Positions 11,551 through 35,358 of a stretch of 48,745 nucleotides of DNA are shown here, piece by piece. The stretch comes from a virus: the IMG/VR virus record IMGVR_UViG_3300036046_000008. One strand, written 5' to 3'. The translations under genes were made by a program, and so were the position numbers. Each line of letters starts with the position of its first letter. Position 1 is the stretch's first letter. Below the pieces are notes generated by a model that saw only the letters and a list, made by a program, of their open reading frames with translations, was not told the origin of the DNA and ran no database searches.

Positions 11551-12500
11551 ACCTCTCGAAAGTTAACTCGGTCGACAATGACGCCATCCACGTTAAAATC
11601 GAGAAACACGGACAGCTCGCGCCCGTTTACAAAATCCCGCAAACGCGGATCATCTCCGTGCAGGAACCCGAAGTCAATATAGTTGTCTCCGGTTCCGTCC
11701 TCGTTGATGCGCCAGCCAACAACCTGCCCAGCTTTGGACCGTTCCATTCCGAGCATGTCGTAGACCTCGTTCAGGAACACATGTCCCTTTGCCTTAAGCA
11801 AATCGTTCGCATAGTTCTGCTGAGCGCGCAGGAACAGATAGTTGGCGTGCGGCACGTCCTGCCAATGCTGGTTGTACTCGTCAAAGAAACGAGCATACGG
11901 CGAATATGCGGTCTCTCCGATACGCTTACGCTCAACTACCTCTTTCGAACCTGTGTCTTTGTTCTCGATCGCCACGCGCTCAGAATATGCGTCGTAACGC
12001 AGGTCACGCTCAACTTCCTCACCGAATTCCTGCCGAACCCGATCGCGATACAGCTTGAACGCCCGGTCCAGTCCATTGTATGCCACCGTCAGGGCAGCCA
12101 CACGAGTGTTGAGGATGAAGTGCGCACGAGCAAACGCGGCGACGGTCAGGGTGCCCACCAAGATTGTGGGGGCGTACAGCCGACCCACGTCAACAAAGGT
12201 CCGCGTGTAAATATAGATGCGATCCCGCAGTGCATCTTCCTCCGTATAGTGATGCTTGGCCACCATCTCGGAGTCTTGCTCGACAGTGCGCACGTTCTGC
12301 AGGTCCTGCTGCGTCTTCTGCAGAACCTCATCGACGCGGAGAGTCGCCCGCGACGCCAGAACGGTGGTTGCCGCAAATCCTACCACGCCCGCACCGAACA
12401 GAATATGAGGCGAGTTAACCTTGCCCGCCAAGACCAGCCGCCCCATCTTTTGGGAGACGGCTGGTGACATGGCTTTTCTAATAAGTTGCAACTTGTTCAT
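11547..12500 (-). CDS. membrane protein, paralog of 15329..16117
   Basis: Track ORF trimmed to ATG at 12500 with GAAAGGA RBS; shares N-terminal TM pattern and C-terminal blocks with 15329..16117. Confidence 0.55.
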   Translation of the reverse strand: MNKLQLIRKAMSPAVSQKMGRLVLAGKVNSPHILFGAGVVGFAATTVLASRATLRVDEVLQKTQQDLQNVRTVEQDSEMVAKHHYTEEDALRDRIYIYTRTFVDVGRLYAPTILVGTLTVAAFARAHFILNTRVAALTVAYNGLDRAFKLYRDRVRQEFGEEVERDLRYDAYSERVAIENKDTGSKEVVERKRIGETAYSPYARFFDEYNQHWQDVPHANYLFLRAQQNYANDLLKAKGHVFLNEVYDMLGMERSKAGQVVGWRINEDGTGDNYIDFGFLHGDDPRLRDFVNGRELSVFLDFNVDGVIVDRVNFREV

Positions 12501-12510
12501 CTTAGTCCTT

Positions 12511-13197
12511 TCAGTCCAGTGGTTCGGGTTGCGAGAGATCGAGCAAATATCCGGACGAGATCCGCCGGACTTTGGCGCCACTTAGATCGTACCAACCCCA
12601 ATTGGCGTCGGTGTACGCCGGAGTCAGATCCAGCAGGTTGTAGAGATCTGAGACGGACACGTGCTGATAGCGATCGAGCAGATCATACATCCGATCCAGG
12701 ACTTCGTGCGCCTCGGCCCGTGTTGTTAGAACCACCTCTTCAAAATTGTGGCTAGTACGGGCTCTCCGACTCAACTCTCGGCGAGGCTGTCTGTCGTCCG
12801 GAAAAGGCGGACGCGTTCGGCTACCACGCCCGGCGTACTGCTCGTACTGAGTGTAAACTCGCGGTCGGCCACCACGCCCAGACCGAACTCTCGGATTGTA
12901 GTAGTGACTGTCCCCGAATAAGAGCCGCTCAATTCCGCCGCTCACCGCATCAGTGATCATGTCTTTCGCAGCGGGAATAAGCACGTCAAGAACCACATAC
13001 TGTCGAACGTTCTGCGCATCGGCCCCTAGGAACGTCTCACGGACTCGACTGCCAAGAGACCGTTTTCTACGAACCACACGGTTGACAACGACCTTCTCGA
13101 TCTTCTTGTCTTCAGCCGGCGGGGCGGGAGGAGGCGCCGGCTGCTGGAACGCTGTGCGCGTGTTTGGAGGAAACTCTTCCATAATATAACCTTCCAT
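12511..13197 (-). CDS. hypothetical protein
   Basis: Track ORF 228 aa; Pro-rich N-terminus. Confidence 0.5.
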   Translation of the reverse strand: MEGYIMEEFPPNTRTAFQQPAPPPAPPAEDKKIEKVVVNRVVRRKRSLGSRVRETFLGADAQNVRQYVVLDVLIPAAKDMITDAVSGGIERLLFGDSHYYNPRVRSGRGGRPRVYTQYEQYAGRGSRTRPPFPDDRQPRRELSRRARTSHNFEEVVLTTRAEAHEVLDRMYDLLDRYQHVSVSDLYNLLDLTPAYTDANWGWYDLSGAKVRRISSGYLLDLSQPEPLD

Positions 13198-13533: not shown

Positions 13534-13570
13534 GTAGGGGGTCTCATTATACGGCATGCAATTTTCGCGA
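13534..13570 (-). promoter_or_regulatory. Conserved promoter-like element copy (closest to consensus)
   Basis: Minus strand TCGCGAAAATTGCATGCCGTATAATGAGACCCCCTAC then GAAAGGAAG then ATG. Confidence 0.6.
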
Positions 13571-13649
13571 GAGACGGGCGCATGTTCAACTCGTGGCGTG
13601 GGCGGTAGCTACGCCAACAGGTTCTTCGGCTGTCGTTTAAAACCAGCAT

Positions 13650-13680
13650 CCGGTATAGGGGCCAACCCCCTACAGGAAAA
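13650..13680 (-). terminator. Hairpin downstream of 13711..14223 (different family)
   Basis: Plus TAGGGG-CCAA-CCCCTA palindrome. Confidence 0.35.
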
Positions 13681-13710
13681 CCCCTTGCTGGCTCCCGTCA
13701 TGCCCTGTGC

Positions 13711-14223
13711 TTACGCGCGATTCTGAAGGTGCGCGAGAAGCTGCTCTCTCGACATCGACTCCAACTCCGCTTGCGACAGTGTCGTCTCTGTGATCTCGGG
13801 CTCAGCCAAAGGAACGGTTTCGACCGTAGCGCGCTGCGCCTGCTGAATAAGATCGTTAGGCATCACCGCCAACATGAACTGAGCGGCCTTCTCCGGATTT
13901 TCGAACAAAGAGAACAGAAACGCGTCATACGCCGCGGTGTCCTTGAACGCCATCCAAATATCATCCGACTTAGAGAAGCGCTGCCCGTCAGCGCTACGCT
14001 CCCCGTAGGATAGCCGCACAATCTCCTTGACCAGTGCCAAAATCTTGGTAAGTTCCGGCAGAGTTACCTCGCGAACGTCCCCCTCGAGCATGGACTGGAT
14101 TTCCTGCATCTTCTCTCCAAGATGCAGATGGTCGACTAGCTCAGTCTTGGTGATGTTGAAATATAGCGTGCTTGTCTGCGTATTCCCGTTGAAATCTTCG
14201 TAGGTGATAGTCTGCTTATACAT
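13711..14223 (-). CDS. hypothetical protein
   Basis: Track ORF 170 aa. Confidence 0.6.
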   Translation of the reverse strand: MYKQTITYEDFNGNTQTSTLYFNITKTELVDHLHLGEKMQEIQSMLEGDVREVTLPELTKILALVKEIVRLSYGERSADGQRFSKSDDIWMAFKDTAAYDAFLFSLFENPEKAAQFMLAVMPNDLIQQAQRATVETVPLAEPEITETTLSQAELESMSREQLLAHLQNRA

Positions 14224-15304: not shown

Positions 15305-15335
15305 AAATATAGGGGGTTTAAATGTTGTCTAACTC
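15305..15335 (-). promoter_or_regulatory. Degenerate copy of promoter-like element
   Basis: Minus strand CATTTAAACCCCCTATATTTAAAGGAGCA before ATG of 14913..15290. Confidence 0.3.
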
Positions 15336-16117
15336 ACACGGTTGTAGTGTCGTGTCGGACTCACCATAAAATCCATGACAATGCACGGCCGATCGTCGTC
15401 TGCCATGGTGGTAGAGAACCGCAACTCCAAGAGCAGGTCTGAATTCCAACCGATGTCGTCAGAGAACTTCGTTAGATCTAGACCAAGTTGATTGTACAGA
15501 TCGCTCAGAGACGCGTAGAAGTCGTTGATGATCTTCTTGTTAATGTAGTTTTCTGCTCTCCTCATTGCCTCCATATCACTGTAGAAATATCGCCCTGCGT
15601 AGAGGTCATAGCACAGCACTGTGCCTACACCTTGAATAATGGGTTGATTGCGAACAGGGTTATCACGTACCCGATCTTGCGCAATCTCGTCTCTCAGTGC
15701 CCGTTCTTTACTTGAGCCCAGCTGCTCGGTAACCTTGTGCTTATACTCGGTGAACGCGCGCTCTGTCAGAGAATATGCAGCGACCATGGCGGCTGTCCGA
15801 CGATTACTGACATATACGGCGGCGATCAGGCACGCGCAAGAGACTACACCACTTGCTACCGCGGGAATATAAAGACGCCACGTCAACGAGACGATGTCTT
15901 CTTGAGCCAACGGTTCGGCAACGACATAGTTCTGAGCTGCGTCGTCTGCCCGCCGGTCTTTCTCCTCCTCGAGAATATAGGCGGCTCGAAAACCGGCTTG
16001 TGACGCAAGCACCGTCGTTGTAACAACCCCGGCAAGCCCTACAGTTGCAAGTAATGTAGGCGCATTGTCGACGAGAAACTTTTGCGACATCCGCATCACA
16101 TCAGTCAACATCGTCAC
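15329..16117 (-). CDS. membrane protein, paralog of 11547..12500 (start uncertain)
   Basis: Track ORF 262 aa; shared TM and C-terminal blocks with 11547..12500. Confidence 0.55.
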   Translation of the reverse strand: MTMLTDVMRMSQKFLVDNAPTLLATVGLAGVVTTTVLASQAGFRAAYILEEEKDRRADDAAQNYVVAEPLAQEDIVSLTWRLYIPAVASGVVSCACLIAAVYVSNRRTAAMVAAYSLTERAFTEYKHKVTEQLGSSKERALRDEIAQDRVRDNPVRNQPIIQGVGTVLCYDLYAGRYFYSDMEAMRRAENYINKKIINDFYASLSDLYNQLGLDLTKFSDDIGWNSDLLLELRFSTTMADDDRPCIVMDFMVSPTRHYNRVS

Positions 16118-17833: not shown

Positions 17834-19018
17834 CTATAGGTATGTAAACGCCGGATATGCCTCAAACCCCTCAGGGGTATCAGTACGAATATACTCAGTA
17901 ACACGAGCACGCACCATAGGCGTATATCGGCCACGGACCGAGACAATATCCCCCAGAAAATAATCCTGCCCGTAGACCCATTGCGATCGTGTAGACACCT
18001 CGCCGTCGACAGCTTGCAGTTTTAGATGGGCTTCGAGAATACGTTCGCCTTCGTCAACATTATGCTCGTTCCACTCAGTGTTATCATACCCTTCTTCGGG
18101 ATCGCCCCCGTCAATATAAAACACTCGACGACTAAGACCGGTTAGCTGCCCTTCCGGGCGACGAGCAATAACGATGCCGTTATTAACAAGAATCGCTGCC
18201 TCGTTATGGTAAATATCCATAGAGAAGGTATAGTTCGGCCGGATCAAATCGTCGATCTCAGTGTCAAAGATCACAATGGCGTACGTAGTCTGGCCATGGC
18301 TCTTGTTAAATCCGCGATACACGTCCCACCGCAGGGCAGTAATGTTTGTATTTGTCGCGCCCGTAACAGCACCTGTAGACGAATCAATATCTATTACGCG
18401 CCCTGAGGAAGGCGGTCGGATCGTCCGAAAACCATAAGGGCGATACCGTAAAAATTTCTGAACTTCGGGCAGCGCTGGGCCCGGACGAATAAACCGTTGC
18501 TTGATCGGCCCCGCGTTGCCGCTCGTAATATCGGTGGTGCTATCCGTGACGACAGTGTTTAAGACTCCATCGTTCGAATTCTTCGCGCTCACAACCGGAG
18601 GCTGCCGAGTATAGTCATACGTGGACCGTTCATGTAGGGCATGGTAAATCAATCGTAAAGCTGATGCAAGCGGTGAGTGCGAGAATGCTTTGTACCGCTG
18701 AGCTCGCTTTCTCCCCAAGACGCGATGATTCAGAAATGACGTGATAGATCTCCCAGACACAATAAGCTTCTCAATGCCGGCGTCATCCGTTTCAATGCGG
18801 ATATTCTCGACCATCATTACCTCAGTTGTCTGGCGCAGACTGACTAGGGTTTCCATGGGCAACACAGCCAAAGTCTTACGAACCGCATACGTCTCTAGCT
18901 GAAACTCGCCAGGCTCGGCGAAGCGCTCAGTCCAGATCAATGAATGATAATGCGTAATCGGATCGCCCACTGGCAAAAAGGTCGACGAGCTCAAAACAAG
19001 GAAATCTAAAGTAGACAT
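17834..19018 (-). CDS. minor tail protein (tail-tip, Tal-like position)
   Basis: 394 aa; second gene after tape measure; start abuts upstream stop. Confidence 0.5.
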   Translation of the reverse strand: MSTLDFLVLSSSTFLPVGDPITHYHSLIWTERFAEPGEFQLETYAVRKTLAVLPMETLVSLRQTTEVMMVENIRIETDDAGIEKLIVSGRSITSFLNHRVLGRKRAQRYKAFSHSPLASALRLIYHALHERSTYDYTRQPPVVSAKNSNDGVLNTVVTDSTTDITSGNAGPIKQRFIRPGPALPEVQKFLRYRPYGFRTIRPPSSGRVIDIDSSTGAVTGATNTNITALRWDVYRGFNKSHGQTTYAIVIFDTEIDDLIRPNYTFSMDIYHNEAAILVNNGIVIARRPEGQLTGLSRRVFYIDGGDPEEGYDNTEWNEHNVDEGERILEAHLKLQAVDGEVSTRSQWVYGQDYFLGDIVSVRGRYTPMVRARVTEYIRTDTPEGFEAYPAFTYL

Positions 19019-19840
19019 CTAGATCCCCCAATGCCGGCTACGATACTCAAAAGAGATCCATTCAAACTGCGAGGGATTGGATGTCTGAACGACGTGCGTG
19101 CCGCCATGTAGCGTTAACCATTTCGATTCTGCTGTCAGCATCTCCAAAAATCGGATAAACGAAGCCTCTCTTTTTAGTTTAACCTGTCGCGTGGCCTGAT
19201 TCGTATCAACAATCAGACGATCGTTTACTGCAAAAGCCGATTGGAAGTCCATAAAGGTTCCATTTTGAATTGCGATAGAGAAAGTCGAAACGGCTGTCAG
19301 AAATTTAATCTCAAAGGCCACGCCGGTAGGAGCGAGCCCCACATTGTCAATTGTCCACGTACTTGTTGCCGGCGGGATAAAACGGGTTACGTCCGGCTTT
19401 TCCAGATAAGGTCCTAGACAATCGATCGTAATCTGGACTTCTGGTTTCTTATTGAACGGAACAATCTCAATACGCTTAACGTAACCAACCGTCTCAACAA
19501 CAGCTTCGTTCTGGGAGAGAAAAACCACGCGAATGGACTGATTTGCCGGATCAACGCCCGGACTCAGCAGCCCGTACAGATAGTAACGCAAATCGGAGAC
19601 TGTTTGGCCAATCTTGTAATCAGGGTTAAGGCCCACCCGAGCAACAATCTGCCTGCCTTGCGAGCGCCGATCTACAAACACCCCGCCCGGAGTATGCGTC
19701 TCGGCGAGAACGACATCGAGTTCAGGCGGACCTAAACCGTCGATATGAGCAACTTGATACGGGTCGGTCGCCTTGACCCCAAAGATCGGCAAGTCGATCT
19801 CGGTCAGACCAATGAGCCGGACTGCGTCAAATACAATCAT
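19019..19840 (-). CDS. minor tail protein (distal-tail, Dit-like position)
   Basis: 273 aa; immediately downstream of tape measure with ATGA overlap. Confidence 0.5.
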   Translation of the reverse strand: MIVFDAVRLIGLTEIDLPIFGVKATDPYQVAHIDGLGPPELDVVLAETHTPGGVFVDRRSQGRQIVARVGLNPDYKIGQTVSDLRYYLYGLLSPGVDPANQSIRVVFLSQNEAVVETVGYVKRIEIVPFNKKPEVQITIDCLGPYLEKPDVTRFIPPATSTWTIDNVGLAPTGVAFEIKFLTAVSTFSIAIQNGTFMDFQSAFAVNDRLIVDTNQATRQVKLKREASFIRFLEMLTAESKWLTLHGGTHVVQTSNPSQFEWISFEYRSRHWGI

Positions 19841-22800
19841 AGCTGACTCAAAGCCTCCTTTGCGAGATCCAATTGATTGCGCGTATTCCGATAGATTTCC
19901 AAAGCGCTCAGAGCCTTGGGCGAGTTGTTGTACTGCTTAAATTCTACGCGAGCTTGCCGAGCGAGCTCCGCTTGCTGCGCAAACGCCTGAGCACTTACCG
20001 CCCGCGCTTGAGCAATATCTCCGGCCCGATTCACAGAGACCTGAGGGGTAAGCCTACCATTACGAAGCAACGCGTTGGCTGTCGCTGCGTCTTTACGGAA
20101 CGAAGTAAGGTCTAGAACAGGCGCCACGACTGGGCGAATATTCAGATCGCCGTCCATCATCTTGTCCATGTCTTTCAACGACGCCTTCATCGCACTAATA
20201 GCAGCATTCCCGACCCGCGCGGCAGACTTCTGAACCTGCTTGGAATTGTTATCCAGCCCGACAACGAGGCCGTCGTCGAAATATCGGCCCAGAAGCATTG
20301 TTTCTCGCGCCGGCGAGTTGATGCCAAACACATCCTTGGCAGCCTGAAGGGCGGCAATGGCGATTCGACGCGCTTCGGCCACAACTCGACCAACTCCGCT
20401 CGCAAGCCCACCCGTCATGCCATCAATGATTGCGCCAGCCAGATTTGCACCCGCCGCGCGCAAGTCGCCCGAACGATTTCTGATAGTGGTCGCGACGCCA
20501 TTGATAAACTTAATCACCGCATCGGCGCCCTCGTTCACCAATTTATTTGCTCCCTGACTAACCTCTCGAATGAACCGAGTAATAAGATTGATCCCAGCGT
20601 TCACGACCCGCGACATATTGTTGGACACACCGTTGATAAACTTTACCACAACGTTGACGCCAGCCGTAACAATCCGGTTCATGTTGCTCGCCAGACCGTT
20701 CAAGAAACGAACAACAATATCGCTGCCCAGCCGGACAATTTGCGGAATATTATCCCGGATCCCACGCATCAGACGAACCAACATCTCGAAGCCAACAGTG
20801 ATCAACGTCGGGAACAAGGCCCGAATATTCTTAATTCCTTCGAGCACTAGAGTGCGGAATGCTTGACCCATCTTTGGGACGTTCTGGATGACCGCGTCCA
20901 AAAGTGCGCCCAACAAGGCAGAGAACGCCTTTACCAGTTCTGTGGCACCTTTCCCAATCGTCGCGACGAACTCGATCATGCCTCTGGCCAAGGCGTTCGC
21001 AAGCCGCGGGATTGCTGTGGCCACATGCTCGAATCCGTCGCGAATAATTTGAACGCCCACCTGAACTGCTTTGATCGCGACATAGAAGGCTGCGGCAAAT
21101 ATAAGAGACGCTGCGCCTACAGCAGATAGGCCCAACCCAAACACAATCAGTGCCGCCCCACCAGCCGCAATCAAAGGGGCAGCGGATCCAAAGGCAACGC
21201 CCGCCGCAAAGAGCAAAGTCATTGCGATCGTAAAGGAGATAAGCGACTTTACCAGGTCGCCCCAACTCAATTCGCTCAATGACGTAATAACTGGGATAAA
21301 TATAGCAATGGCGGCTGCCGCTACAAGCAACGCGCCTGCGCCTGCCATGGTACCCGACATAGCTGCCAAAGCAACACCAATAATAGTCAGCGCCAACGCA
21401 AGCGTAATAAGACCTTTAGCAATCTCGCCGATTGACATCCCGCCAAACGTCTGAACAACTTTGCTGATGATGAGGAGAGCGCCAGACAACACGAGCAAGG
21501 CTGCCGCGTTCGCAAGCATGTTGGTAGGCATTTTGCTCATAGCTTTCGCCAAAATAACTAAGGCGGCGGCCATCACCAGCAAGCCCTTGCCCGACTCTTT
21601 AAGCTCTGGCCCCGCAAAAGACTGAATTGCTTTGGAGAGAAGGAGCAACGCTCCTGCAATAATAACCAGACTCACAGCCTGCCCTTTAAGGGGCGGCATC
21701 ATCTTCATGCCTTGACTGATGACGATCAAAGCCGCGGCTACAGCAGTCAGGCCTCGGGCAAGGTCACTCCAACTCAACGCGGCCAAGTCTTCTAGAGCCT
21801 GCGCAAGAATAACCATTGCCGTCGCAATTGCGATAATCCCGAGCCCGGCTCTAATCAACCCCTTGGGGTCCTTGGCCAAGGCATTGGCCGCCTTCGTCAG
21901 GGCAAGCAAACCGCCCGCAATGCCAACAAGACCTTTAGCAATCTCTTCCCAGCTGAGGCCGCTCAACCGCTTTAGAGCAGCCGCAAGAATAAGCAAGGAC
22001 GTTGACAACAGGACAAGGCCCGCCGCGAGCGCCGGCATCTTAACAGCTGCGGGGGAGTCAACAATTCGGTCCATGATTGCCATGCCGCCAAGCAACACTG
22101 CAAATCCCGCAGACATCGCTCCAATCGCTTTCGCTAGATCTGCGGCGTTGATCATAGACAAGATTACTAGCGCCCCTGCTAGAATCGCGATAGCCCCAGC
22201 GATCTTGAGCAGAGCATTGGCTTTCAGATTTTGCTGCATGCCTTCGAGAACGCCGGTCAGCCCCTGCAACGAGTCCTTGACGCTGTCCAAGAACCCACCA
22301 GACAGATCCAACGACACCCCGAAGCCTTCGCTGACAAGTTTGCGGATCGCTACCGCCAGAGCCCCTGCCCCGGCTGCGCCGCCCAGCGTAAATATAGACG
22401 ACCAGTCGATGCCGGCAAATACCTCAGAAAAGCGTTCTCTAACAGACTTGCCGAACTCTCCAATTTGCGAAAGGATTGGCGCAACAAAATCGCCAAAGCG
22501 CTTGAAAGCGTCACTCAACCCTTGAACACCTGTGGTAACACTTTCGACAACACCACTCAGCACACTAACCTGAGGTACCCCATCGTCAACCTTCTTGAAG
22601 AAATCGCCCACCTTAGCCGCGATCTCGAGGAAGCCGCCCGACGCGCCAAACAGCGCCGCAGCCAAGTCAAATATAAAGCCCGCAATACCCTTGATGACTT
22701 TGATGCCGATCGACAAGGCTGAGAAGACCCCTGTAGCAATGCGCCCGATTTGTTCAAGGGTTTCCTGAGACGGAATGAGCCCTTCGGTGAACTCTCGGAA

Positions 22801-24081
22801 TCGCGCCGTCATATTAACGAGATCGTCAACTGTCGTACGTGGAAATACATCACGGAATGCTTCGCGTACCGTTTGCAATACCGATCCGAGCCCCTTGAAA
22901 ATATTCGCGAGGCCTTCGATCAGATCAGTGCGACCACCGGCTTTAGCCCAGCCGCTCAGCAGCTCATTTCGCGCGCTCGACGACTCTTCAGTAATATTGC
23001 CAAATACAGTACTAATACGCGTGAACAGGTTCGTTGCCTGATTAAAGTTACCGATAACTGTACGGAAAGATTCCGACCATCCTGAGGCAACGGCTTCTTT
23101 GGCCGTATCCATAAGTTGAGTAAAAGTTCTTACCTTAGTCGCAGCCTCAACACCGGTTTTACCCAACTCTTGAATCTGAGCAATTTGCTCGGCAGTAAAG
23201 CCTTTCGCCTGAAGTTCAGCCTTGGACATCTCCCCAGTGAAGCCTTGGAGAGTGGTTGTTAGAACTTCACTAGTAACCCAACCCTTCTCCAAGGACCCCC
23301 GAAATGTATTGCCTGCGTCGGTCCACTGCTTGAAAGTCGTATCAATGGGAACATTTTCGATCGTTCCGAGTGCCTTGCCCGTCTCGAACAAAGCTTTCTG
23401 GAAGACCTGCCCACCCATACCCGCGTTGACGACCGAATTCCAGTCCATCAACTTGACGCTGCCAGCGGCAATCGCCTGTGACAACTGATACATTGCAGTG
23501 GACGCTTGCTGCGAGGATGACCCTGAGATCGCCGCCAGGTTCGCCAGGCCCTTGATCGACTGAACTGAGGTGTCGAGGTTCACGCCTGCTGCGGTGAACG
23601 TACCAATATTCCGAGTCATCTCGGCAAAGTTATAAATCGTCTTGTCGGCGTACTCGTTCAGCTCATCAAGCGCATCATTAACCTGGCGCAAGTTTGTGTC
23701 ATTAGTGTTTGCCAAAATAGTCTGAATAGACCGAATATTTAGCTCGTACTCTTGAAAACCTTGCATGACGGGCTCAAGAGTAAGAGATTTAACAAGACTA
23801 ATCCCGGCGTCGACGGCCCGATTTGTGATGTTTGCCAACGCCGTAATAGCAACCGTCGCCATGCCGAGGAAGGCGGTACTCACTCGACCAGCCGACTGCT
23901 CCAAATTGTTCAAATTCACTTTAGACGCTTCGGCCCCCACATTTTGAAGCGCTTTTTGTGAAGAACCAAAGTTCATGGCGTCTTTAAGCTTGCTGATGGC
24001 AGCCATCGTGACCGACGCCGCAGTTAGAAAATCTTTGTTGTCGAATTTCATCGTGAGAATTCGACTTTCAACGGTTGCCAT
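19837..24081 (-). CDS. tail tape measure protein
   Basis: About 1414 aa; Ala/Gly/Leu-rich with long hydrophobic stretches typical of TMP; start set to ATG overlapping upstream stop (TGATG). Confidence 0.8.
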   Translation of the reverse strand: MATVESRILTMKFDNKDFLTAASVTMAAISKLKDAMNFGSSQKALQNVGAEASKVNLNNLEQSAGRVSTAFLGMATVAITALANITNRAVDAGISLVKSLTLEPVMQGFQEYELNIRSIQTILANTNDTNLRQVNDALDELNEYADKTIYNFAEMTRNIGTFTAAGVNLDTSVQSIKGLANLAAISGSSSQQASTAMYQLSQAIAAGSVKLMDWNSVVNAGMGGQVFQKALFETGKALGTIENVPIDTTFKQWTDAGNTFRGSLEKGWVTSEVLTTTLQGFTGEMSKAELQAKGFTAEQIAQIQELGKTGVEAATKVRTFTQLMDTAKEAVASGWSESFRTVIGNFNQATNLFTRISTVFGNITEESSSARNELLSGWAKAGGRTDLIEGLANIFKGLGSVLQTVREAFRDVFPRTTVDDLVNMTARFREFTEGLIPSQETLEQIGRIATGVFSALSIGIKVIKGIAGFIFDLAAALFGASGGFLEIAAKVGDFFKKVDDGVPQVSVLSGVVESVTTGVQGLSDAFKRFGDFVAPILSQIGEFGKSVRERFSEVFAGIDWSSIFTLGGAAGAGALAVAIRKLVSEGFGVSLDLSGGFLDSVKDSLQGLTGVLEGMQQNLKANALLKIAGAIAILAGALVILSMINAADLAKAIGAMSAGFAVLLGGMAIMDRIVDSPAAVKMPALAAGLVLLSTSLLILAAALKRLSGLSWEEIAKGLVGIAGGLLALTKAANALAKDPKGLIRAGLGIIAIATAMVILAQALEDLAALSWSDLARGLTAVAAALIVISQGMKMMPPLKGQAVSLVIIAGALLLLSKAIQSFAGPELKESGKGLLVMAAALVILAKAMSKMPTNMLANAAALLVLSGALLIISKVVQTFGGMSIGEIAKGLITLALALTIIGVALAAMSGTMAGAGALLVAAAAIAIFIPVITSLSELSWGDLVKSLISFTIAMTLLFAAGVAFGSAAPLIAAGGAALIVFGLGLSAVGAASLIFAAAFYVAIKAVQVGVQIIRDGFEHVATAIPRLANALARGMIEFVATIGKGATELVKAFSALLGALLDAVIQNVPKMGQAFRTLVLEGIKNIRALFPTLITVGFEMLVRLMRGIRDNIPQIVRLGSDIVVRFLNGLASNMNRIVTAGVNVVVKFINGVSNNMSRVVNAGINLITRFIREVSQGANKLVNEGADAVIKFINGVATTIRNRSGDLRAAGANLAGAIIDGMTGGLASGVGRVVAEARRIAIAALQAAKDVFGINSPARETMLLGRYFDDGLVVGLDNNSKQVQKSAARVGNAAISAMKASLKDMDKMMDGDLNIRPVVAPVLDLTSFRKDAATANALLRNGRLTPQVSVNRAGDIAQARAVSAQAFAQQAELARQARVEFKQYNNSPKALSALEIYRNTRNQLDLAKEALSQL

Positions 24082-24470
24082 CAGGAAGTCACCACCTTCC
24101 AAGCCTCAGCGGCCATCGCGTCAAATATCGGACGAATTGCGGGGTTAATGTAGTCACGGCCTTGAACATACCCGCCGTTTCGAGTGCCATGGCCTACCTG
24201 CAGTAGAACCGCGATGGGCGCCCCATCCACCACGTGTGAATTGCCCCAGATGATGGAATAGGTATCACGTTCTTTCTTAATTTCATAGTACCACGACTGG
24301 GCGGTAACACCACTGTCAACAGGGGTAGCCGCCTGCAACGCTGCAACGCCGATGTCGCCATACTTTGCCAGAATATCTAAGGCTTGTCCGGCCGCCATCT
24401 TTTGCAGGAGAGCCTCCGTCTTCTGAAAGGAGCCCGAGGACGAAAACGAAAACACAATTGCTCCCTTCAA
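24081..24470 (-). CDS. tail-module protein (HK97 gp10-like size and position)
   Basis: 129 aa, immediately upstream of TMP. Confidence 0.45.
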   Translation of the reverse strand: MKGAIVFSFSSSGSFQKTEALLQKMAAGQALDILAKYGDIGVAALQAATPVDSGVTAQSWYYEIKKERDTYSIIWGNSHVVDGAPIAVLLQVGHGTRNGGYVQGRDYINPAIRPIFDAMAAEAWKVVTS

Positions 24471-25085
24471 TCAAGCATTGAACAAGGAGACCACTTCCGC
24501 AACCGGCGGCAGTCTGGGATGAGCCTCGTCAGACCCATAGAGAATCTTTTCAATCTCGTAGATCTTGGAGGAGTTGGCTTCATTTGAGTCAACAAAAATA
24601 TGAGAGGAGGGACGAGCCCCAGCAATTGGCACTGGAGTGGTTCTAAATATAAAGGTAAACGGTTTCAAAGTGGGTGTAGCACTGATTGTTTCGTAAGACG
24701 TTGTTTCGATGGTCGCAACCACATTGTAGACAATATGAATCCGATACCCTTCGCCAGTGCGCGTACGATAACTGAATCCGAACACGGACGAAGGCGACTG
24801 ATCCCCCACGAAAGTACGACCGTCGCAAAGAGCCAGAATGTGATCCTCGAGCATGTAGGGATAAATATACGCGCCGACCTTAGCAGAGTAATCTGACAGA
24901 TCTTGTTCAACGTTGTAGCAAATCCCGTCAAAATATAGTGGGTTCCCTGGGACCGCCGCAACATCCTCTGTCAAGGACACCAAGCCGTTCCACTCGACAG
25001 ACTCATTGTTATCGAAAAACAAAACTCCCCGATCGATCCCGGATTCAAAAGTCCTAGGAAGAGTCTCCCAAGAGAGTCGTGTCAT
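24471..25085 (-). CDS. tail protein, member of 3-gene paralog family (major tail subunit candidate)
   Basis: 204 aa; shares W..YE.GVD.GV, FGFSYRT, GY.IH.VYN and LYG...P.LP blocks with 25094..25783 and 26365..27024; TAGGAGA RBS. Confidence 0.55.
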   Translation of the reverse strand: MTRLSWETLPRTFESGIDRGVLFFDNNESVEWNGLVSLTEDVAAVPGNPLYFDGICYNVEQDLSDYSAKVGAYIYPYMLEDHILALCDGRTFVGDQSPSSVFGFSYRTRTGEGYRIHIVYNVVATIETTSYETISATPTLKPFTFIFRTTPVPIAGARPSSHIFVDSNEANSSKIYEIEKILYGSDEAHPRLPPVAEVVSLFNA

Positions 25086-25093
25086 GAGGTCTC

Positions 25094-25783
25094 CTAACGC
25101 AACATCTCGATCAATTCAGAAGGCGCGGGAAGCTCGGGCTCAGTCTGGCTCGTTCCGTACAGAACATCCTCGACGTAAGCAAGTTTTTCGGGACTGACAC
25201 TTCGAGAAGAAACAACAAAGTAAGCCCCGGGTGCAAATATCCCCCGCTTCCGTCGATACGTATAATCGTCTTGAGGATCGAACCAAGTAAACTCATGCTT
25301 ATGATACGGAATTGTCAGCACCTGCCACTCTTTCAGAGTTGGCTCGGCAGAAGACGTCAATGTAGCATACACGGTCTCCGTCGAAAATGCTACCGCATTG
25401 TGGACGATATGAATTTTATAGCCGTAATCCTGACCGCGCGCCGCGTTTCCCACCAATGTGCGGAAAGAAAACCCAAAACGTTCTCGAGGCTGATGTGTTG
25501 CATATACCCCCGGGGCCAACTTGGCTAGACCGTCATAAGCAGCAAATCCAGCCGGGGCGGCATAGGCACCGATCCGCAGCTGGATGTCGGCACGATCGAA
25601 ATCCGTAGCAAATTTTTGTCCCTCAAAATACTTATCGGCTAGATTCTGGTTCGCGTTGATAGTATCAATCACCCGAAGGCCCGGCCATGCCACACCAGGC
25701 CCATCCGGAGGATAAAATACGCCGCGGTCGACGCCCAATTCATATGTCTTTTCATTTAACAACCCCCAAACTAACCGAGGCAT
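25094..25783 (-). CDS. tail protein, member of 3-gene paralog family
   Basis: 229 aa; same conserved blocks; GGAAGGAG RBS. Confidence 0.55.
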   Translation of the reverse strand: MPRLVWGLLNEKTYELGVDRGVFYPPDGPGVAWPGLRVIDTINANQNLADKYFEGQKFATDFDRADIQLRIGAYAAPAGFAAYDGLAKLAPGVYATHQPRERFGFSFRTLVGNAARGQDYGYKIHIVHNAVAFSTETVYATLTSSAEPTLKEWQVLTIPYHKHEFTWFDPQDDYTYRRKRGIFAPGAYFVVSSRSVSPEKLAYVEDVLYGTSQTEPELPAPSELIEMLR

Positions 25784-25796
25784 GATTTACTCCTTC

Positions 25797-26339
25797 CTAG
25801 CCTCTCGTATGGAGCGCGGCTTTACGTCGGGCGTTCAACTCGCGATTCCGCGCAAGAATATCGGACTGCCTCATCTTCTTCGGTGGCTGGGTCTTCGCAG
25901 TACACACCTTAATCAAAGTCAGTAATCGATTTAGATGCCAAGTTTCACAACTGAACGGGATCGCAAAGGAAGTCATCCAATAATAGATGACCTCGGCGGT
26001 CACGATCTCAGAATCCGATTTTTTCGGTTTTTCGGAGAACCATGTGGCTGTCATCTTCCGGTCAATGTAGTTTGTGATTGCATTGTAATGATCAGACGTT
26101 AAAAGCTTAACGAACTCCGGAGGAACGTCTTCCGGAGCCATAACCATGCAAGAGATGTACGACCGAACTTCTTCATCGGTCTTTTCAGAATTTGTAAGGA
26201 ACGGCTTTTCGTGCAGAGACTCCCATTTTGACAGGGAGAGCAGAGAGTGCTCCAACTGAAGAGTCAAACCCGGAGACGTGAAGAAGGTTTGATCGCTCTC
26301 GTTAAAGAATTCCTGTTCCGGCAACTGGATGACAAGCAC
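25797..26339 (-). CDS. hypothetical tail-module protein
   Basis: 180 aa between paralogs; basic C-terminus. Confidence 0.45.
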   Translation of the reverse strand: MLVIQLPEQEFFNESDQTFFTSPGLTLQLEHSLLSLSKWESLHEKPFLTNSEKTDEEVRSYISCMVMAPEDVPPEFVKLLTSDHYNAITNYIDRKMTATWFSEKPKKSDSEIVTAEVIYYWMTSFAIPFSCETWHLNRLLTLIKVCTAKTQPPKKMRQSDILARNRELNARRKAALHTRG

Positions 26340-26364
26340 TCTCTACTCTCCTATCGTCTGTTCT

Positions 26365-27024
26365 TTATGGTGTCACCAGGGTGATGACCTCATCCGGCAA
26401 GGGAAGCCGCGGCTCCTCCGGGACCACGTCGTCACCATAGAGAATTGCCTCGAGCTCGGCCAAGGCAGTGTCGTCTGTAGTCCGACTGTCAATCGTCAAA
26501 CTGGAGACTGGATTGTAACCAATCACGGGCACCGGAGTCGTACTAATCTCCCAACTGAAAGTAATAGCCTCTGGCGAATCATTTACGGTAGTATAGCTCT
26601 TCTCCGTCGGAGCCGCCAAGCACCCATAAACAAGATGCAGCTTGTAACCCAGAGCATTGTTCTCAAGGTCGTTACCCACGATCGTTCGATAAGACAGCCC
26701 AAACAAGCGGCGAGGTTGCTGGCCGAGGAACAAACCAGGAGTGGGCTCCGCCGAGCCATCACACTGAGCAAACTCGTCCGGGTAAGTAAAAGCTTCGATC
26801 GTGCACCCAAACTCCTCAGCAGAGATCAGGTTCAGATACTTGATGTTATCGGCATACTGAGCCGAAGCTTCAGCACCCGAAGGGGACTCAGTGACGGAAA
26901 CCAGCCCGTTCCAAGCGAACCCCGTGTCATACTCTCCTGCCGTCAGCAGATAGAGCACGCCATGGTCAACGCCGGTCTCATAGAACCTCTCTCCAGGCTG
27001 ATCCCAAGTCAGAAGCTGTGCCAT
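26365..27024 (-). CDS. tail protein, member of 3-gene paralog family (major tail subunit candidate)
   Basis: 219 aa; same conserved blocks; TAGGAGGAA RBS. Confidence 0.55.
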   Translation of the reverse strand: MAQLLTWDQPGERFYETGVDHGVLYLLTAGEYDTGFAWNGLVSVTESPSGAEASAQYADNIKYLNLISAEEFGCTIEAFTYPDEFAQCDGSAEPTPGLFLGQQPRRLFGLSYRTIVGNDLENNALGYKLHLVYGCLAAPTEKSYTTVNDSPEAITFSWEISTTPVPVIGYNPVSSLTIDSRTTDDTALAELEAILYGDDVVPEEPRLPLPDEVITLVTP

Positions 27025-27035
27025 TTCTATTCCTC

Positions 27036-27350
27036 CTAGAAATAGAGCGAGAAAACGTCATGATTCAGATTGTCGGCGGTAAAGAAAGTGTCGTGGGTAC
27101 ACCGCGGCAGCGCCGCAACGGCGCTAACAAGACTGGTATCAGGATCCCGAGCAATGATCGTTACCGTATACTGCCGCGTATGAGTATACGGGTTATTATC
27201 TGCAAAATTAGTATCCATGCGAGATCGTTTATAAATAATGCATGGGTACTGAAGCTGGATGTTTGTAGGCGGCTGAAAATAGACTTCACTCGAGCCCAGC
27301 ACTTGTTCTAACCTTTGTTGCAACTCAAGCCGTCGGGCCATTATAAACAC
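27036..27350 (-). CDS. head-tail connector-like protein
   Basis: 104 aa, position between capsid and tail genes. Confidence 0.45.
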   Translation of the reverse strand: MFIMARRLELQQRLEQVLGSSEVYFQPPTNIQLQYPCIIYKRSRMDTNFADNNPYTHTRQYTVTIIARDPDTSLVSAVAALPRCTHDTFFTADNLNHDVFSLYF

Positions 27351-27648
27351 CTCCGAGCCTAAGAAGAAGGCGGGGGCTTTGAACTTCGACCTCTGTCACA
27401 GTCCACTTAGCCCCCGCCCACTCCACGTAACGGATGGCAAAGAAGTGTTCAAATGCGTAAGGATCGGCAAGAATACTAATCGAGTTCGTTACCGAAATAT
27501 CATTGTTGAGGTATTGGCCCACGTCAGACCGTTTCACATTTCGAACAACGTCTCCAAAATATAGCCGCTCAACAATCTGATCTACCCAAACGCCGGGGGC
27601 CGTCTGGACGTTTTGCCCGTAACCGACAACCCCAGAAAACTTTGCCAT
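27325..27648 (-). CDS. head-tail connector-like protein
   Basis: 107 aa, immediately after capsid gene; GAGGAG RBS. Confidence 0.5.
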   Translation of the reverse strand: MAKFSGVVGYGQNVQTAPGVWVDQIVERLYFGDVVRNVKRSDVGQYLNNDISVTNSISILADPYAFEHFFAIRYVEWAGAKWTVTEVEVQSPRLLLRLGGVYNGPTA

Positions 27649-27669
27649 CTCAGCTCCTCAAAATATAAA

Positions 27670-29625
27670 TCAGCTTCCGGTCGGGCGGAGGTAGCTCCAC
27701 TGAGTACGACTGCCCGGCGCCACGTAGTAGCCATCGCCAGCCACGGCATAGACCGTCAGAACCTCCCCAGCGTCAAGAACCTGAGCGCCCGTGAGCTCGT
27801 CACCGTTGGAGTCCTGGTAAACCACGCCGGTCTGCGTCGGAATCGTCACCGTGTAGGTAGAGCTGTCCCACGTCGGAGCGTTTGGCTTCACCTCGTCATC
27901 GGCTGCTCCGGAGTTGCGCACAACCAGAGCCGAATGCGGCTTGTTCAGAGCGCCACACAGCCGCGCCTCGATGAGATACTTGTACTGGTTGTAATCAATA
28001 TCAAAGTCATCGAAGAGACTCGTCTGGCCGCCTCGATCGGCGCCAATAACATAGTCCGTAAGATTGACGACAACGCCAACCAGCGACGGATCAGACTCGA
28101 ACGCCTCCACCTCGACAATGTTAGCGACGCGCATCGCGGTAGCCGCCTCAGCAACGGTCTTGTAAAGGCGCTTCCCGTCGCCGTCTTTAACCAGCATGAT
28201 CTCGGAAAGGACAGTCTCAGAGGTGTAGAATGTTGGCGTACCACTGCCCTTATAGAGACGACGGGCCCGAACCAAGGCGTCAACCAGCTCCTCGTACGAG
28301 GAGTCAGCGTCACCAAGGTTGACCGTCACAGGCACTGCGAAGAACGGGTGGTCTTTCGCAATGGGACGAATATGAGTCTCGAGAATCTTGTCCTCGTCGC
28401 CCGGGTCACGCCCGTCACCAATAAAGATGGCGCGGGCAATCTCCTCCTCGAGCATCAGACGCATCTCGCCCTTCATGAACGCGACAACGTCCAGGTCCAC
28501 AATATCAATCACGTCATCGCGATCGAGCTTCTGCTTCTTATAGACGGTTTGGGGAGTGGTGACGCGGCGCGAGAGCGAGAAAAACTCTTCCTTCTTCATC
28601 GTCCCCTTGACGTAGCCCTTCGCACGAGCCTCGTCAAACTTCAGATCGGCGCTCACGGACTTAATCCGAGAGAAGGGACTCTTCCGAACCCCAGACATCA
28701 CGCCCGAAACCCACTCGGTCCGACGGGAATCAAGCTGAATCTCGCCGACCATCTTGGCGTCTGGGAACAACACGTCGAGATTCTCCACACCGTGCTGCAG
28801 AGCGTAGTTCTCGAACGCGGTACGAAGCGACCCGACGCGCTGAGCGTCTGCCACAATTGCCTGAAGATCACTGTGCGAAAGAACTGGGCCCGACGAGGGC
28901 GTGGAGTCCTGCTCGAAAACGTTACGGGTCATTTCGGTGTCACCTTCCATGTGAGAATGTGTAAGCTGGTCTTGCTCTTCGCTGTCTGCCGACTGGGCCA
29001 CATTGTCGGACTCTTCGGCTGCCTGCTCAAGCGCCGCCCCCACCATATAATGCAGGACATCCTTCTGCTCTTGAGTCATTGAGTCATAAACATCCTGAAT
29101 AGTGAGCTCCTTCTCGGAGCCACTCTCGGTTTTCTCCACGTGTGCAACCTCCGGGTTCAAAGACTCGTGTTCGAGAAGTAGTCCAGTGTAGATGACGGCC
29201 TCGTCTTCCAAATGTTCAATCTCACCGTCCGCGTGGGCAACGGCTACATAATCGATAAGGGCTCCGGGATTGGCGCCGGACAGGACCAGACTGACCTCAG
29301 TAATGGCGCCGTGCAAAACCTGCTTCGCTCGCTCGACTAGGCGATTTGCATAGATAGACATGCGGGTAATATCACCGTGCTGCACCAAAGTCTTAGCATT
29401 CAAACCAGATGGGCTTGAATTAAAGAAACCATACGCGTACATGCCATCGTCACGAGCTTCGAGAATTGCATGTCCCAAAACATTCTCAGGGGACTTATGG
29501 CCATGCTGCCAAACTAGCGGCACGCGATGCCCATCCATGTGCTTGAAAGCATCAGGCGTAATGACTCGGCCGTCGGAGCACTTGAGACCCGCCTTCGTGG
29601 CGTAACCGCTGAAATCAGCTTCCAT
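27670..29625 (-). CDS. prohead protease (HK97 family, U35-like) fused to HK97-fold major capsid protein
   Basis: About 651 aa; N-terminal VPLVWQHGH...LGHAIL protease-like block, acidic linker, capsid-like C-terminal half; ATG with GGAAGGAGA RBS. Confidence 0.6.
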   Translation of the reverse strand: MEADFSGYATKAGLKCSDGRVITPDAFKHMDGHRVPLVWQHGHKSPENVLGHAILEARDDGMYAYGFFNSSPSGLNAKTLVQHGDITRMSIYANRLVERAKQVLHGAITEVSLVLSGANPGALIDYVAVAHADGEIEHLEDEAVIYTGLLLEHESLNPEVAHVEKTESGSEKELTIQDVYDSMTQEQKDVLHYMVGAALEQAAEESDNVAQSADSEEQDQLTHSHMEGDTEMTRNVFEQDSTPSSGPVLSHSDLQAIVADAQRVGSLRTAFENYALQHGVENLDVLFPDAKMVGEIQLDSRRTEWVSGVMSGVRKSPFSRIKSVSADLKFDEARAKGYVKGTMKKEEFFSLSRRVTTPQTVYKKQKLDRDDVIDIVDLDVVAFMKGEMRLMLEEEIARAIFIGDGRDPGDEDKILETHIRPIAKDHPFFAVPVTVNLGDADSSYEELVDALVRARRLYKGSGTPTFYTSETVLSEIMLVKDGDGKRLYKTVAEAATAMRVANIVEVEAFESDPSLVGVVVNLTDYVIGADRGGQTSLFDDFDIDYNQYKYLIEARLCGALNKPHSALVVRNSGAADDEVKPNAPTWDSSTYTVTIPTQTGVVYQDSNGDELTGAQVLDAGEVLTVYAVAGDGYYVAPGSRTQWSYLRPTGS

Positions 29626-29702
29626 TTTGACTGTCTCCTTCCTGGTTAGTGTCAACGGCCTGGAGTGCCGTTTCGGATTTGATAAGACTCATTAGAACCC
29701 CT

Positions 29703-31616: not shown

Positions 31617-32489
31617 TTACCGTCTGGGCCGAGTTGCACCAACCACAAACAGCGCGGCCCCCGCCCCTAGAAGCCATTTTTCGCCTGTTGTACGTCTCTG
31701 AGCAATTTTGAGTTCGGGCGAATTAGCAAATTCCTTGGCGTCACGACGCAAAATGCGGAAGGCCTCTTTTCTCCCGCCAGTAACTAGCGATTTATAAAAA
31801 TTCAATTCGTTCCGAAGAGACCGAACTTGATACGCTTGGACTGTTTTCCGGGCAGCCAAAATTTCGGCGTCCCGAGCCTGTCTCCTTTGCGCACGAGTCG
31901 GGCCGGATGGGCCGCTAGATGACGCTCGATCCTTTCTCACGCCCCAGCGCATTCCTTTGACCCCGTAATGCGCGAGCTCTTCTGAAAAACGTTGGGCCTC
32001 ATTTGCCGACGGTTCAGAATCCATGCCAAGTCCTTTCGTCAAGGTAAACAGAGGTTCATACCTAAATTTTCGATTGGAGATTTCTGTTAAACTTTCGCCC
32101 CTGGCCATTCCTTTAACGCCGTAATGAGCCAATGAGCTATCCGACAGACTCCGCACGGATTCAGGTACAGGCTGAACCATCTGCTCATAAAGCTTCACAA
32201 GCGTTCGCGCCGCTTTTGTTTTCTCGTCTTTCGTCGCCTGCAAAGGCGCACGAGCTCCTGCAAGTGCAGCCGCAGCCGCAAATATTGCGTTCTTATTCAG
32301 CACGCCGCTGGGCGTCTTCACTGGCAGCTTGCATTGGGCTTTGGAGCGCAATTCATTCCGAGCCGGACGAATCAAACACGCCTCATACCATTGCTCTAGA
32401 GTGTAATCAGACGGCGAATATCTGATCCAGGGGGGTAGTGTCCACCAACTTTCCTCCTTACGCAATAGCAATAGACCATCCCGTGCCAT
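31617..32489 (-). CDS. head-module protein with two LAHYGVKGM(R)WG motifs and C-terminal TM (start uncertain)
   Basis: Track ORF 31617..32597; N-terminal 36 codons look non-coding and overlap 32458..33195; motif repeated at aa about 158 and 193 of track ORF. Confidence 0.45.
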   Translation of the reverse strand: MARDGLLLLRKEESWWTLPPWIRYSPSDYTLEQWYEACLIRPARNELRSKAQCKLPVKTPSGVLNKNAIFAAAAALAGARAPLQATKDEKTKAARTLVKLYEQMVQPVPESVRSLSDSSLAHYGVKGMARGESLTEISNRKFRYEPLFTLTKGLGMDSEPSANEAQRFSEELAHYGVKGMRWGVRKDRASSSGPSGPTRAQRRQARDAEILAARKTVQAYQVRSLRNELNFYKSLVTGGRKEAFRILRRDAKEFANSPELKIAQRRTTGEKWLLGAGAALFVVGATRPRR

Positions 32490-33195
32490 TACCTGACGAA
32501 GCCGACCAGGTGACACTAGCAGCGGGAATTGTTCCGGCAGAGGAAATAGGCGCCTGCGCGGCAACCGCATGGGCGCTCGATCCAGACGACGCGGCAAGAG
32601 CCTGATTTATTAAGGTGTGACCGGCTGGCAGAGTAACGGACGTCGACTTATTGTCTTTGCGAACCCAAAGTCTAACCAACAGCCCTTCGCCGTCGGCCGT
32701 GACCGCTGGGGCGGGCGCTACCGTGTTCGTATCTGGCTGGTTTTGGGTAGATCGAACAAACGACGTCAGGTTACGCACAGCCACGCAAACGTGGCTACAT
32801 TTTCGACTAGCAGAAAGAGACCAAGACGGCATCTCAAGGCCGTCAAAATATGTTGCTACATAAAGCGCTCTTTGGGTGGTCCCCTGGTTTGAAAGCAAAT
32901 TATCCTCAGTCCAATCCGAATGGTCGGACGTTACGGTCACACCACCCGAAGAATCAGATACTGACATCCCGCACACCAACCAGTCTCCATCCTGCAGACC
33001 GGAAGGAAGATCGGGGGTATAAGATGTTAAAAAGTTTGTGGCAGACGCAGACGAGCCTACAACGATAGGCTCGGTAGGAGGCTCCGGCTCTTCGCCGCTC
33101 TCATAAATAAGATTAGTCCCCACATAAGCCTTTAGAAGAGGAGAAGTTCCCGCGTACATTGCGGTCACACTCGAACTACCAGCACGAACAGTCAT
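32458..33195 (-). CDS. hypothetical Ser/Thr-rich protein
   Basis: 245 aa; ATGA overlap with terminase stop. Confidence 0.5.
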   Translation of the reverse strand: MTVRAGSSSVTAMYAGTSPLLKAYVGTNLIYESGEEPEPPTEPIVVGSSASATNFLTSYTPDLPSGLQDGDWLVCGMSVSDSSGGVTVTSDHSDWTEDNLLSNQGTTQRALYVATYFDGLEMPSWSLSASRKCSHVCVAVRNLTSFVRSTQNQPDTNTVAPAPAVTADGEGLLVRLWVRKDNKSTSVTLPAGHTLINQALAASSGSSAHAVAAQAPISSAGTIPAASVTWSASSGNGTGWSIAIA

Positions 33196-34947: not shown

Positions 34948-35358
34948 CTAACCCTTTTTTTTCTGCAACGCCGCTTCTACCTGCGCGTTGAGAGCTTTTG
35001 TTCCCTGCGCAGTGACAACACCCTTAAGAATTTGCTTCCCTGAGTCGAGTGTGATCTCACGCACAAATTTTTGCCCCTCTTTTTTAAATCGACTTCCCCG
35101 GGAAGCACTACGATCAGCTGCCCTCCCAACAAGCTCATTATAAGTTCGTTCTAGCTGGAGACGACGATTAAACGCTTCCAATTCTTTGTTTGAGAGCGGG
35201 TCGGTACTCCCACGATTACGACGAATTTTGTCTGTTGTAGCTTTAACCGCAACTACATCAGGTGAATCGGAGTCGATTTGGGCACGAGTTCGACGAACGC
35301 CCCACTTCATACCTTTGATGCCGTAGTGAGCCAGAATATCAGAATCAGCCATTGTCAC
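34948..35358 (-). CDS. hypothetical protein with N-terminal AHYGIKGMKWG motif (terminase small subunit position)
   Basis: 136 aa immediately upstream of terminase large subunit; motif shared with 31617..32489 and the N-terminus of 44540..47221. Confidence 0.45.
   Translation of the reverse strand: MTMADSDILAHYGIKGMKWGVRRTRAQIDSDSPDVVAVKATTDKIRRNRGSTDPLSNKELEAFNRRLQLERTYNELVGRAADRSASRGSRFKKEGQKFVREITLDSGKQILKGVVTAQGTKALNAQVEAALQKKKG

Follow-up and report, generated by a model that had tools for sequence, protein, structure and literature searches.

Three major tail protein paralogs in the tail module of an uncultured phage with the duplicated tail gene architecture of actinophages

A 'duplicated major tail protein' beside a fusion of capsid protein and protease has been described as a hallmark of the actinophage clusters AM, AU, AW, BI, CC, DJ and EL (PMC11080557). 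The 'duplicated major tail protein' of AU, AM, BI, DJ and CC phages was said to be a feature that 'warrants further study' (bioRxiv 10.1101/2020.01.10.891226), and for cluster DJ the duplication was likewise reported elsewhere (PMC10652937). Here we describe the tail module of an uncultured phage, a complete contig from JGI metagenome 3300021518 (IMG/VR record IMGVR_UViG_3300036046_000008), which carries three paralogous major tail protein genes; the contig of 48,745 bp, the whole stretch of DNA that was analysed, is hereafter called the window. The paralogs are named, in the order of their transcription, C (26365..27024), B (25094..25783) and A (24471..25085), and the gene between C and B is named X (25797..26339); the whole tail region lies on the minus strand and is transcribed in the order of descending coordinates. 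The published architecture, which we define as at least two genes of the family phrog_2645 together with a capsid-protease fusion in one late module, is present in the window. The window is a new metagenomic example of this documented architecture, and the arrangement itself is not new: an earlier note on this DNA had implied that tandem major tail genes were a novelty, but they are a published hallmark, and Microbacterium phage Count already carries three copies, gp22, gp24 and gp25, all annotated 'major tail protein', with a homologue of X between gp22 and gp24.

Searching GenBank phages with tblastn we found the family in 243 records at 480 places, most records having two and some having three such places. 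The family-bearing phages infect Arthrobacter, Gordonia, Streptomyces, Rhodococcus, Microbacterium and Curtobacterium; a single copy is present in the Lactococcus phage 1706 group and in some gut phages. The module of the window is collinear with those of Count, Rima, Pepy6, Kenosha and Mudcat. The tail genes of the actinophage clusters (Rima gp17 and gp19, ReqiPepy6 gp28 and gp30, and the three genes of Count) belong to the same family phrog_2645 as those of the window, and the order common to all is capsid-protease fusion, DUF7253 protein, tail terminator, first major tail protein (MTP1), X, one or more secondary major tail proteins, HK97-gp10-like protein and tape measure protein. The window differs from the actinophage clusters in that all three copies lack the C-terminal extensions of 50–80 amino acids (aa) found in most relatives, and in that no cargo genes follow the secondary copies. 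In addition, its secondary copies seemingly belong to one subgroup, whereas Count and DoctorPepper combine two (neighbor-joining (NJ) tree, weak support). In the 1706 group and in Clostridia-associated relatives with one copy, the tail module is orthologous to that of the window and X and the gp10-like gene are conserved, but these phages have one tube gene and, unlike the window, carry a Phage_TAC_17 gene between MTP1 and X. A nucleotide search of GenBank phages with the 10.7-kb module gave no match, and all relationships are therefore described at the protein level.

Descriptions of the cultured actinophages of the group call them lytic. Some relatives of the tube gene were, however, noted on bacterial contigs of 199–543 kb from Lachnospiraceae, Oscillospiraceae and Christensenellaceae (L106, L146, L155 and L157; L numbers are labels of the relative loci and contigs compared with the window), and the great length of these contigs suggests that some members of the group are integrated or live as prophages in Clostridia. 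The titles of metagenome-assembled genomes with relatives name mostly Clostridia, yet also many other phyla, which is probably binning noise.

Relatedness and fold of the three paralogs

The three genes code for proteins of 219 aa (C), 229 aa (B) and 204 aa (A), and their description in the earlier note as tandem paralogs with shared sequence blocks was borne out. In a three-way alignment they match from end to end with 32–38% identity and 44 invariant columns, which include the blocks W..E.G.D.GV, FG.S.RT..G, GY..H.V and LYG...P.LP...E. Full-length BLASTP comparisons gave identities far above chance level, with 29.5% for A and B (E 6e-22), 33.9% for A and C (E 9e-36) and 31.2% for B and C (E 2.5e-33). 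All three match the 'major tail protein' family phrog_2645 (E 2e-103 for C, 1e-54 for B and 9e-46 for A) over profile positions 1–216 of 270. The 180-aa product of X, which starts with GTG and belongs to phrog_4338 (function unassigned), showed no significant BLASTP similarity to A, B or C (best E 0.73), in agreement with the view that the gene separating the paralogs is unrelated to them. The same C-X-B-A layout is repeated in an independent metagenome contig, L008.

Structure prediction, which the earlier note had proposed as a check, gave a tail-tube fold for C: the AlphaFold model is a beta-sandwich of the Hcp/gpV type, and its fold matches comprise dozens of myophage tube, Hcp and tube-junction proteins, including a heterohexamer of tube-fold paralogs, Hcp2-Hcp3 of B. 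fragilis (9vnd). By full-length homology to C (31–34% identity) A and B are predicted to have the tube fold as well. Sequence and profile searches against PDB sequences with the paralogs, X and the TAC_17 protein yielded nothing significant.

The paralogs differ in charge. C is very acidic, with an isoelectric point (pI) of 4.05 and a net charge of about −24, A is intermediate (pI 4.64) with shortened loops, and B is nearly neutral (pI 5.75) with two 9-residue insertions, which include the basic loop YRRKRG. Placed on the C model, the differences of A and B from C fall mostly in loops or hairpin turns; in A one hairpin tip and one loop are shorter, and in B these are the sites of the two insertions. 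The acidity of C fits a DNA conduit or tube lumen and points to C as the tube protein. B retains 48 of the 88 positions that are conserved to at least 95% in the set of first copies (position 1), and for A only 43 database clusters were found, among which identity drops fast to about 35%.

Proposed roles of the first and the secondary copies

First copies share 58–76% identity across host genera, and secondary copies are only 30–50% identical to everything else. The comparison of the window with L008 shows the same asymmetry: C is the best-conserved structural protein (67% identity), followed by the portal (65%), the terminator and the DUF7253 protein (63% each), the capsid protein (58.5%), X (57%), the gp10-like protein (55%) and Dit (53%), and A (48%), the tape measure protein (46%), B (43%) and Tal (38%) are at the lower end. 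In this pair A and B are on a par with the tape measure protein in their rate of evolution and change 1.5–2 times faster than C. A survey of isolates, IMG/VR and GTDB genomes gave 127 complete loci, 57 of which contain a secondary copy. The first copy is 50–69% identical to C in the 63 one-copy loci (median 61%), 56–73% in the 51 two-copy loci and 61–68% in the 6 three-copy loci (medians of the multi-copy groups 66–67%), and individual loci with one (L015), two (L017) and three copies (L008) all have a first copy that is about 70% identical to C. Since the first copy is about as similar to C with or without extra copies, we conclude that these have not remodelled its role in self-assembly. Judged by sequence comparison C is orthologous to the only tube protein that the one-copy relatives have, and it has kept the role of that protein, with A and B as accessory copies. 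In phage 1706 the orthologue of C, orf13, is labelled 'major structural protein' in the record deposited by the group that characterised this phage, which lends indirect support to C as an abundant, tube-forming component of the virion.

In origin, B and A are duplicates of the tube gene. The number of copies changes readily among close relatives, which have one, two or three. NJ trees (bootstrap 44–59, weak) divide the secondary copies of Count, DoctorPepper, L064 and L093 between two subgroups and place the A and B proteins of both the window and L008 side by side within one. This distribution of the secondary copies over different subgroups suggests that the three-copy state arose more than once. 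Younger tandem duplications with 51–74% identity between the copies were found upstream of a local TAC_17 gene in four Clostridia-associated loci (L165, L168, L146 and L163, three of them complete), and because these duplications are independent, duplication of the tube gene is recurrent.

The reading we favour, tentatively and at somewhat less than even confidence, is that C forms the tube, and that A and B are structural subunits embedded in it in low copy number, as adaptor rings or anchor modules. C would assemble into acidic hexamer rings that surround the tape measure protein, just as in the one-copy relatives. A and B are members of a class of secondary tube-fold proteins that is widespread and is encoded after X, and the two may insert into the tail as specialised rings or subunits. 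The most likely site would be the distal junction of tube and Dit. This placement is speculative and is proposed by analogy with p140 of T5 and gp48 and gp54 of T4, tube-fold paralogs that form special rings at the junction of the tube with the tip or the baseplate; the analogy is functional, with no sequence relationship to A and B. At this site A and B could serve as adaptor or docking modules for peripheral parts directed to the host surface. Many relatives have fibre-like or carbohydrate-binding extensions fused to this domain, and in the window both copies are reduced to the core. We infer the presence of A and B in the virion, their copy number and their position in the tail from these comparisons.

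The anchor reading is favoured because of the frequency of such fusions in the secondary class. Using phmmer with B against 1.84 billion cluster representatives we obtained 1963 family members at E ≤ 1e-3. Among the best 150 of these 1963, 78 have a length of at least 350 aa and 41 one of at least 600 aa. Of the 78 long members, 75 carry the tube-like domain at the N-terminus, and 75 have a secondary copy as their closest reference (Count gp24, Rima gp19 or DoctorPepper gp18). Identity of the long members to C is 39–54%, mostly under the range of first copies (50–73%). Relatives of the secondary class reach 600–1200 aa, and their extensions match PHROGs labelled 'minor tail protein' or 'tail protein', the carbohydrate-binding module (CBM) CBM_4_9 and the C-terminal region of the Dit family phrog_33. 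All C-type hits (n = 120) have at most 295 aa, and none of the A-type (n = 43) or C-type hits exceeds 321 aa. A cultured example of a fusion of tube domain and extension is gp18 of Arthrobacter phage DoctorPepper. In Mudcat the stop codon of the secondary copy overlaps the start of a gene for a 599-aa tail protein (translational coupling), and the next gene encodes a tail protein of 1292 aa that contains a GDSL esterase domain. More generally, the slot between X and the gp10-like gene holds genes for envelope degradation or for fibres in relatives, among them GDSL esterase, polysaccharide deacetylase, LysB, chitosanase and CHAP/NAGPA hydrolases. A similar principle is realised in SPP1 (gp17.1 and gp17.1*) and in the 936 phages (MTP and TpeX), where two tube forms are made from one gene by programmed frameshifting, so that a fraction of the tube subunits is extended and incorporated along the tube. 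These phages combine a standard tube subunit with a variant that bears peripheral adhesion domains, and the long fused secondary relatives look like a version of this made by gene duplication. The two forms of SPP1 and 936 share an identical tube domain, whereas the genes of the window are separate, their products are 29–34% identical and no slippery site is present at the 3' ends of C, B and A: XXXYYYZ heptamers are absent from C and A, and the two found in B are in the middle of the gene (codons 90 and 111).

Several observations weigh against the anchor reading. A and B themselves have no extension and no partner gene follows them, and a docking role of these two proteins is for this reason argued by analogy only. 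The fused proteins are mainly of the Count gp24 type, a subgroup other than the one to which A and B apparently belong (bootstrap 44–59). The CHAP/NAGPA hydrolases occupy the slot after X also in the one-copy locus L015, which has no secondary copy, and these genes hence do not need one. A and B have a strong Shine-Dalgarno sequence and an ATG start like C, with no terminator in between, so the sequence gives no sign of a low output of A and B. Finally, in the literature searched we found no proteomic or structural study that places any secondary copy in virions.

The same start signals, together with the single transcription unit without internal terminator, speak for a rival reading, in which A and B would co-polymerise with C along the whole tail, in mixed or interspersed rings. 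Such a tube would be the counterpart, by gene duplication, of the two tube forms of SPP1 and the 936 phages, in which extended subunits do enter the tube along its length. Such a heteromeric tube is also in line with the retention of the family's most conserved blocks by all three proteins, with the recurrence of duplication, including young copies of 51–74% identity that plausibly still assemble together, and with the existence of the Hcp2-Hcp3 heterohexamer among the fold matches. We nevertheless consider it unlikely. First copies are about equally similar to C whether they come from one-copy (median 61%) or multi-copy loci (66–67%), the copy number varies among genomes with a first copy about 70% identical, and the faster evolution of A and B would be unexpected if all lateral and axial contacts were shared. 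Moreover, secondary relatives of 600–1200 aa are implausible at about 300 copies per tail. Among the three meanings that the earlier note had suggested for the triplication, an obligate heteromeric tube is thus disfavoured, because C remains 50–69% identical to the sole tube protein of the one-copy relatives. The two others, variable decoration and diversification for host range, may be the better match for the rapid evolution of A and B and for the frequent fusions of the secondary class to fibre-like and carbohydrate-binding parts.

A broader proposition, to which we assign a slightly lower probability still, is that tails in the multi-copy supergroup are generally built from two or three tube-fold proteins, in segmented zones or in mixed rings, with the number and the identity of the extra subunits swapped rapidly between lineages to retune adsorption. 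If true, this would be a modular, multi-protein siphophage tail tube, which is structurally undescribed. Extra tube genes are a conserved trait of cultured phages, hundreds of which, from Arthrobacter, Gordonia, Streptomyces, Rhodococcus and Microbacterium, carry them. Should the anchor reading hold, it would represent a general way in which siphophages attach host-recognition parts to the tail shaft, and it would improve annotation, as every copy is now labelled 'major tail protein'. The value of the comparative data is that they narrow the function of the secondary tube paralogs and make it testable, and the window contributes a minimal, extension-free example with three copies.

Tail assembly chaperone candidates

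The earlier note had found no obvious pair of tail assembly chaperones in the module. This stands insofar as no frameshifted pair of the lambda G/GT type is present between the tube gene and the tape measure gene, but a Phage_TAC_17 gene is present elsewhere in the window and X is a universal partner of the tube gene. A check for slippery sites in 24081..24470 and 25797..26339 revealed no usable heptamer, in line with the absence of such a pair. The sole in-frame heptamer in X is GGGTTTG at codon 23, where a short open stretch in the −1 frame stops at 26187, well short of the 3' end of X; none was found in the gp10-like gene, and neither X nor the gp10-like gene has an alternative-frame extension at its 3' end. 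Open frames do continue past the terminator-like gene and past B at their 3' ends, but these are the frames of the next genes, C and A, which have their own starts. Frameshift fusions of X with B, of B with A or of the gp10-like protein with the tape measure protein were rejected, as the downstream frames are open for only 24–30 nucleotides (nt) before the start codon and contain no slippery site.

X is encoded after the tube gene in every relative examined, and it comprises at least 8000 database clusters with a length fixed near 180 aa. The protein has no fold match in PDB and no Pfam hit at E ≤ 0.1, the Phage_TAC clan included. Outside its own family we obtained weak Foldseek matches only (E 0.01–0.1, TM scores 0.3–0.47), which are enriched for tail assembly chaperones and proteins named 'tape measure chaperone frameshift'. 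In phage 1706 the X orthologue orf16 and its neighbour orf15 are labelled 'unknown', and orf11, orf12, orf13 and orf17 are labelled structural. X is probably a non-virion partner of the tube gene, and a candidate tail assembly factor.

1706 orf15 and its homologues belong to the Pfam family Phage_TAC_17, and the window carries a member of it at 13711..14223 on the minus strand (170 aa, PF23803, E 1.4e-39, 136 bits versus a cut-off of 27), about 10 kb downstream of the tube genes and thus in a non-canonical place. This gene contains no slippery heptamer and has no frameshift partner. TAC_17 is present in exactly one copy per genome in 200 of 200 phage records. In one-copy phages it is located between the tube gene and X, in actinophages with copies after X it lies 15–30 kb away, and a local TAC_17 gene was never found together with a secondary copy after X in our surveys. 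This exclusion may reflect just a few ancestral rearrangements; in an NJ tree of X, which is not robust, the loci with local TAC_17 appear in two places. We also considered TAC_17 and X as a split G/T pair with a shared domain, but hhalign gave a probability of 0.2% and this was rejected.

The position of A and B between the tube gene and the tape measure gene, where a G/GT pair is usually encoded, and the absence of a frameshifted pair would suit a role of A, B or both as non-virion proteins that mimic the tube, recruit C to the tape measure or initiator complex as the T domain of GT does, and are then discarded. It would also suit this role that TAC_17 is never canonical in genomes with copies after X. 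We hold such nucleators or chaperones to be improbable, however, since TAC_17 was moved and not lost and nothing needs to be replaced, the candidate chaperone X is retained in all genomes, and the many fusions of secondary copies to fibre, CBM or minor tail domains speak for a structural role at an exposed site. A replacement of lost TAC_17 by the secondary copies was rejected for the same reason, as the gene is kept once per genome and has only been relocated. We regard it as very improbable that A and B are redundant or decaying copies devoid of a function of their own, as their fast evolution and variable copy number might suggest, because both are intact, full-length open reading frames (ORFs) with good start signals, have orthologues of conserved length in L008 (43–48% identity), keep about half of the family-invariant core positions and belong to a class found in 57 of the 127 loci; intact, persistent and widespread copies in compact phage genomes imply purifying selection.

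Two observations concern the surroundings of the TAC_17 gene. Just after it, at 13558..13710, follow about 150 nt of non-coding sequence with the GC-rich hairpin AGGGGGTTGGCCCCT and a TATAAT-like box, a stretch where the late operon may end and another transcription unit begin. On either side of the TAC_17 region, downstream of the tail genes, lies one of two paralogous genes of phrog_2152 (function unassigned), at 11547..12581 and 15329..16117, both on the minus strand.

Layout of the module and other genes of the window

All genes of the module are on the minus strand. The fusion of capsid maturation protease and major capsid protein is encoded at 27670..29655 (651–661 aa); it is orthologous to annotated capsid/protease fusions and is the other published hallmark of the supergroup. 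The location of the paralogs between head-tail connectors and the tape measure gene, as read in the earlier note, was confirmed. Upstream of C lie a DUF7253 head-tail connector of 107 aa (27325..27648; PF23911, E 1.7e-48; the 1706 orthologue orf11 is labelled structural) and a connector resembling a tail terminator, 101 aa as called (27036..27341; phrog_78 'tail terminator', E 1.8e-9). Downstream of A follow an HK97-gp10-like tail completion protein (Neck1) of 124 aa with a GTG start (24081..24455; phrog_5, E 1.4e-11, and a weak match to PF04883; the 1706 orthologue orf17 is labelled structural) and the tape measure protein of 1414 aa, counted from the ATG at 24081 (19837..24081; PF20155 TMP_3), the stop codon of the former and the start codon of the latter overlapping in TGATG. 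Next come Dit (19019..19840) and a Sipho_Gp37-like tail protein (17834..19018). The start codon is ATG in C, B and A, each of which is preceded by a Shine-Dalgarno sequence of its own, and GTG in X and the gp10-like gene; the intergenic gaps in the module measure 8–25 nt. Promoter- and terminator-like matches in 23900..27700 show no excess over shuffled sequence and are at chance level, and NCBIfam provides no name for any protein of the module. An ORF of 236 aa antisense to C (26329..27039, plus strand) is without family support and most likely spurious.

The motif HYGVKGM(R/K)WG (Pfam DUF7211) occurs twice in a 326-aa product (31617..32597) and once in a 136-aa product (34948..35358), both encoded on the minus strand. 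Three proteins with this motif are encoded between X and the tape measure gene in the saliva phage D_HF5_2C (L014, 7307..9333), and gp019 of ReqiPepy6, whose gene has the same pre-portal location, carries an annotation of similarity to orf7, a structural protein of 1706. Upstream of the terminase gene and far from the tail module, 40245..41804 on the minus strand encodes a protein of 519 aa with an N-terminus of the tail-fibre type and fibritin- or whisker-like segments, possibly a separately encoded appendage. Two further minus-strand products are typical of the supergroup, namely an 893-aa protein (44540..47221) of phrog_4291, which is labelled 'RNA-dependent RNA polymerase', and a DNA polymerase of 1233 aa (6524..10225; phrog_4210) with a primase/helicase-like N-terminal part.

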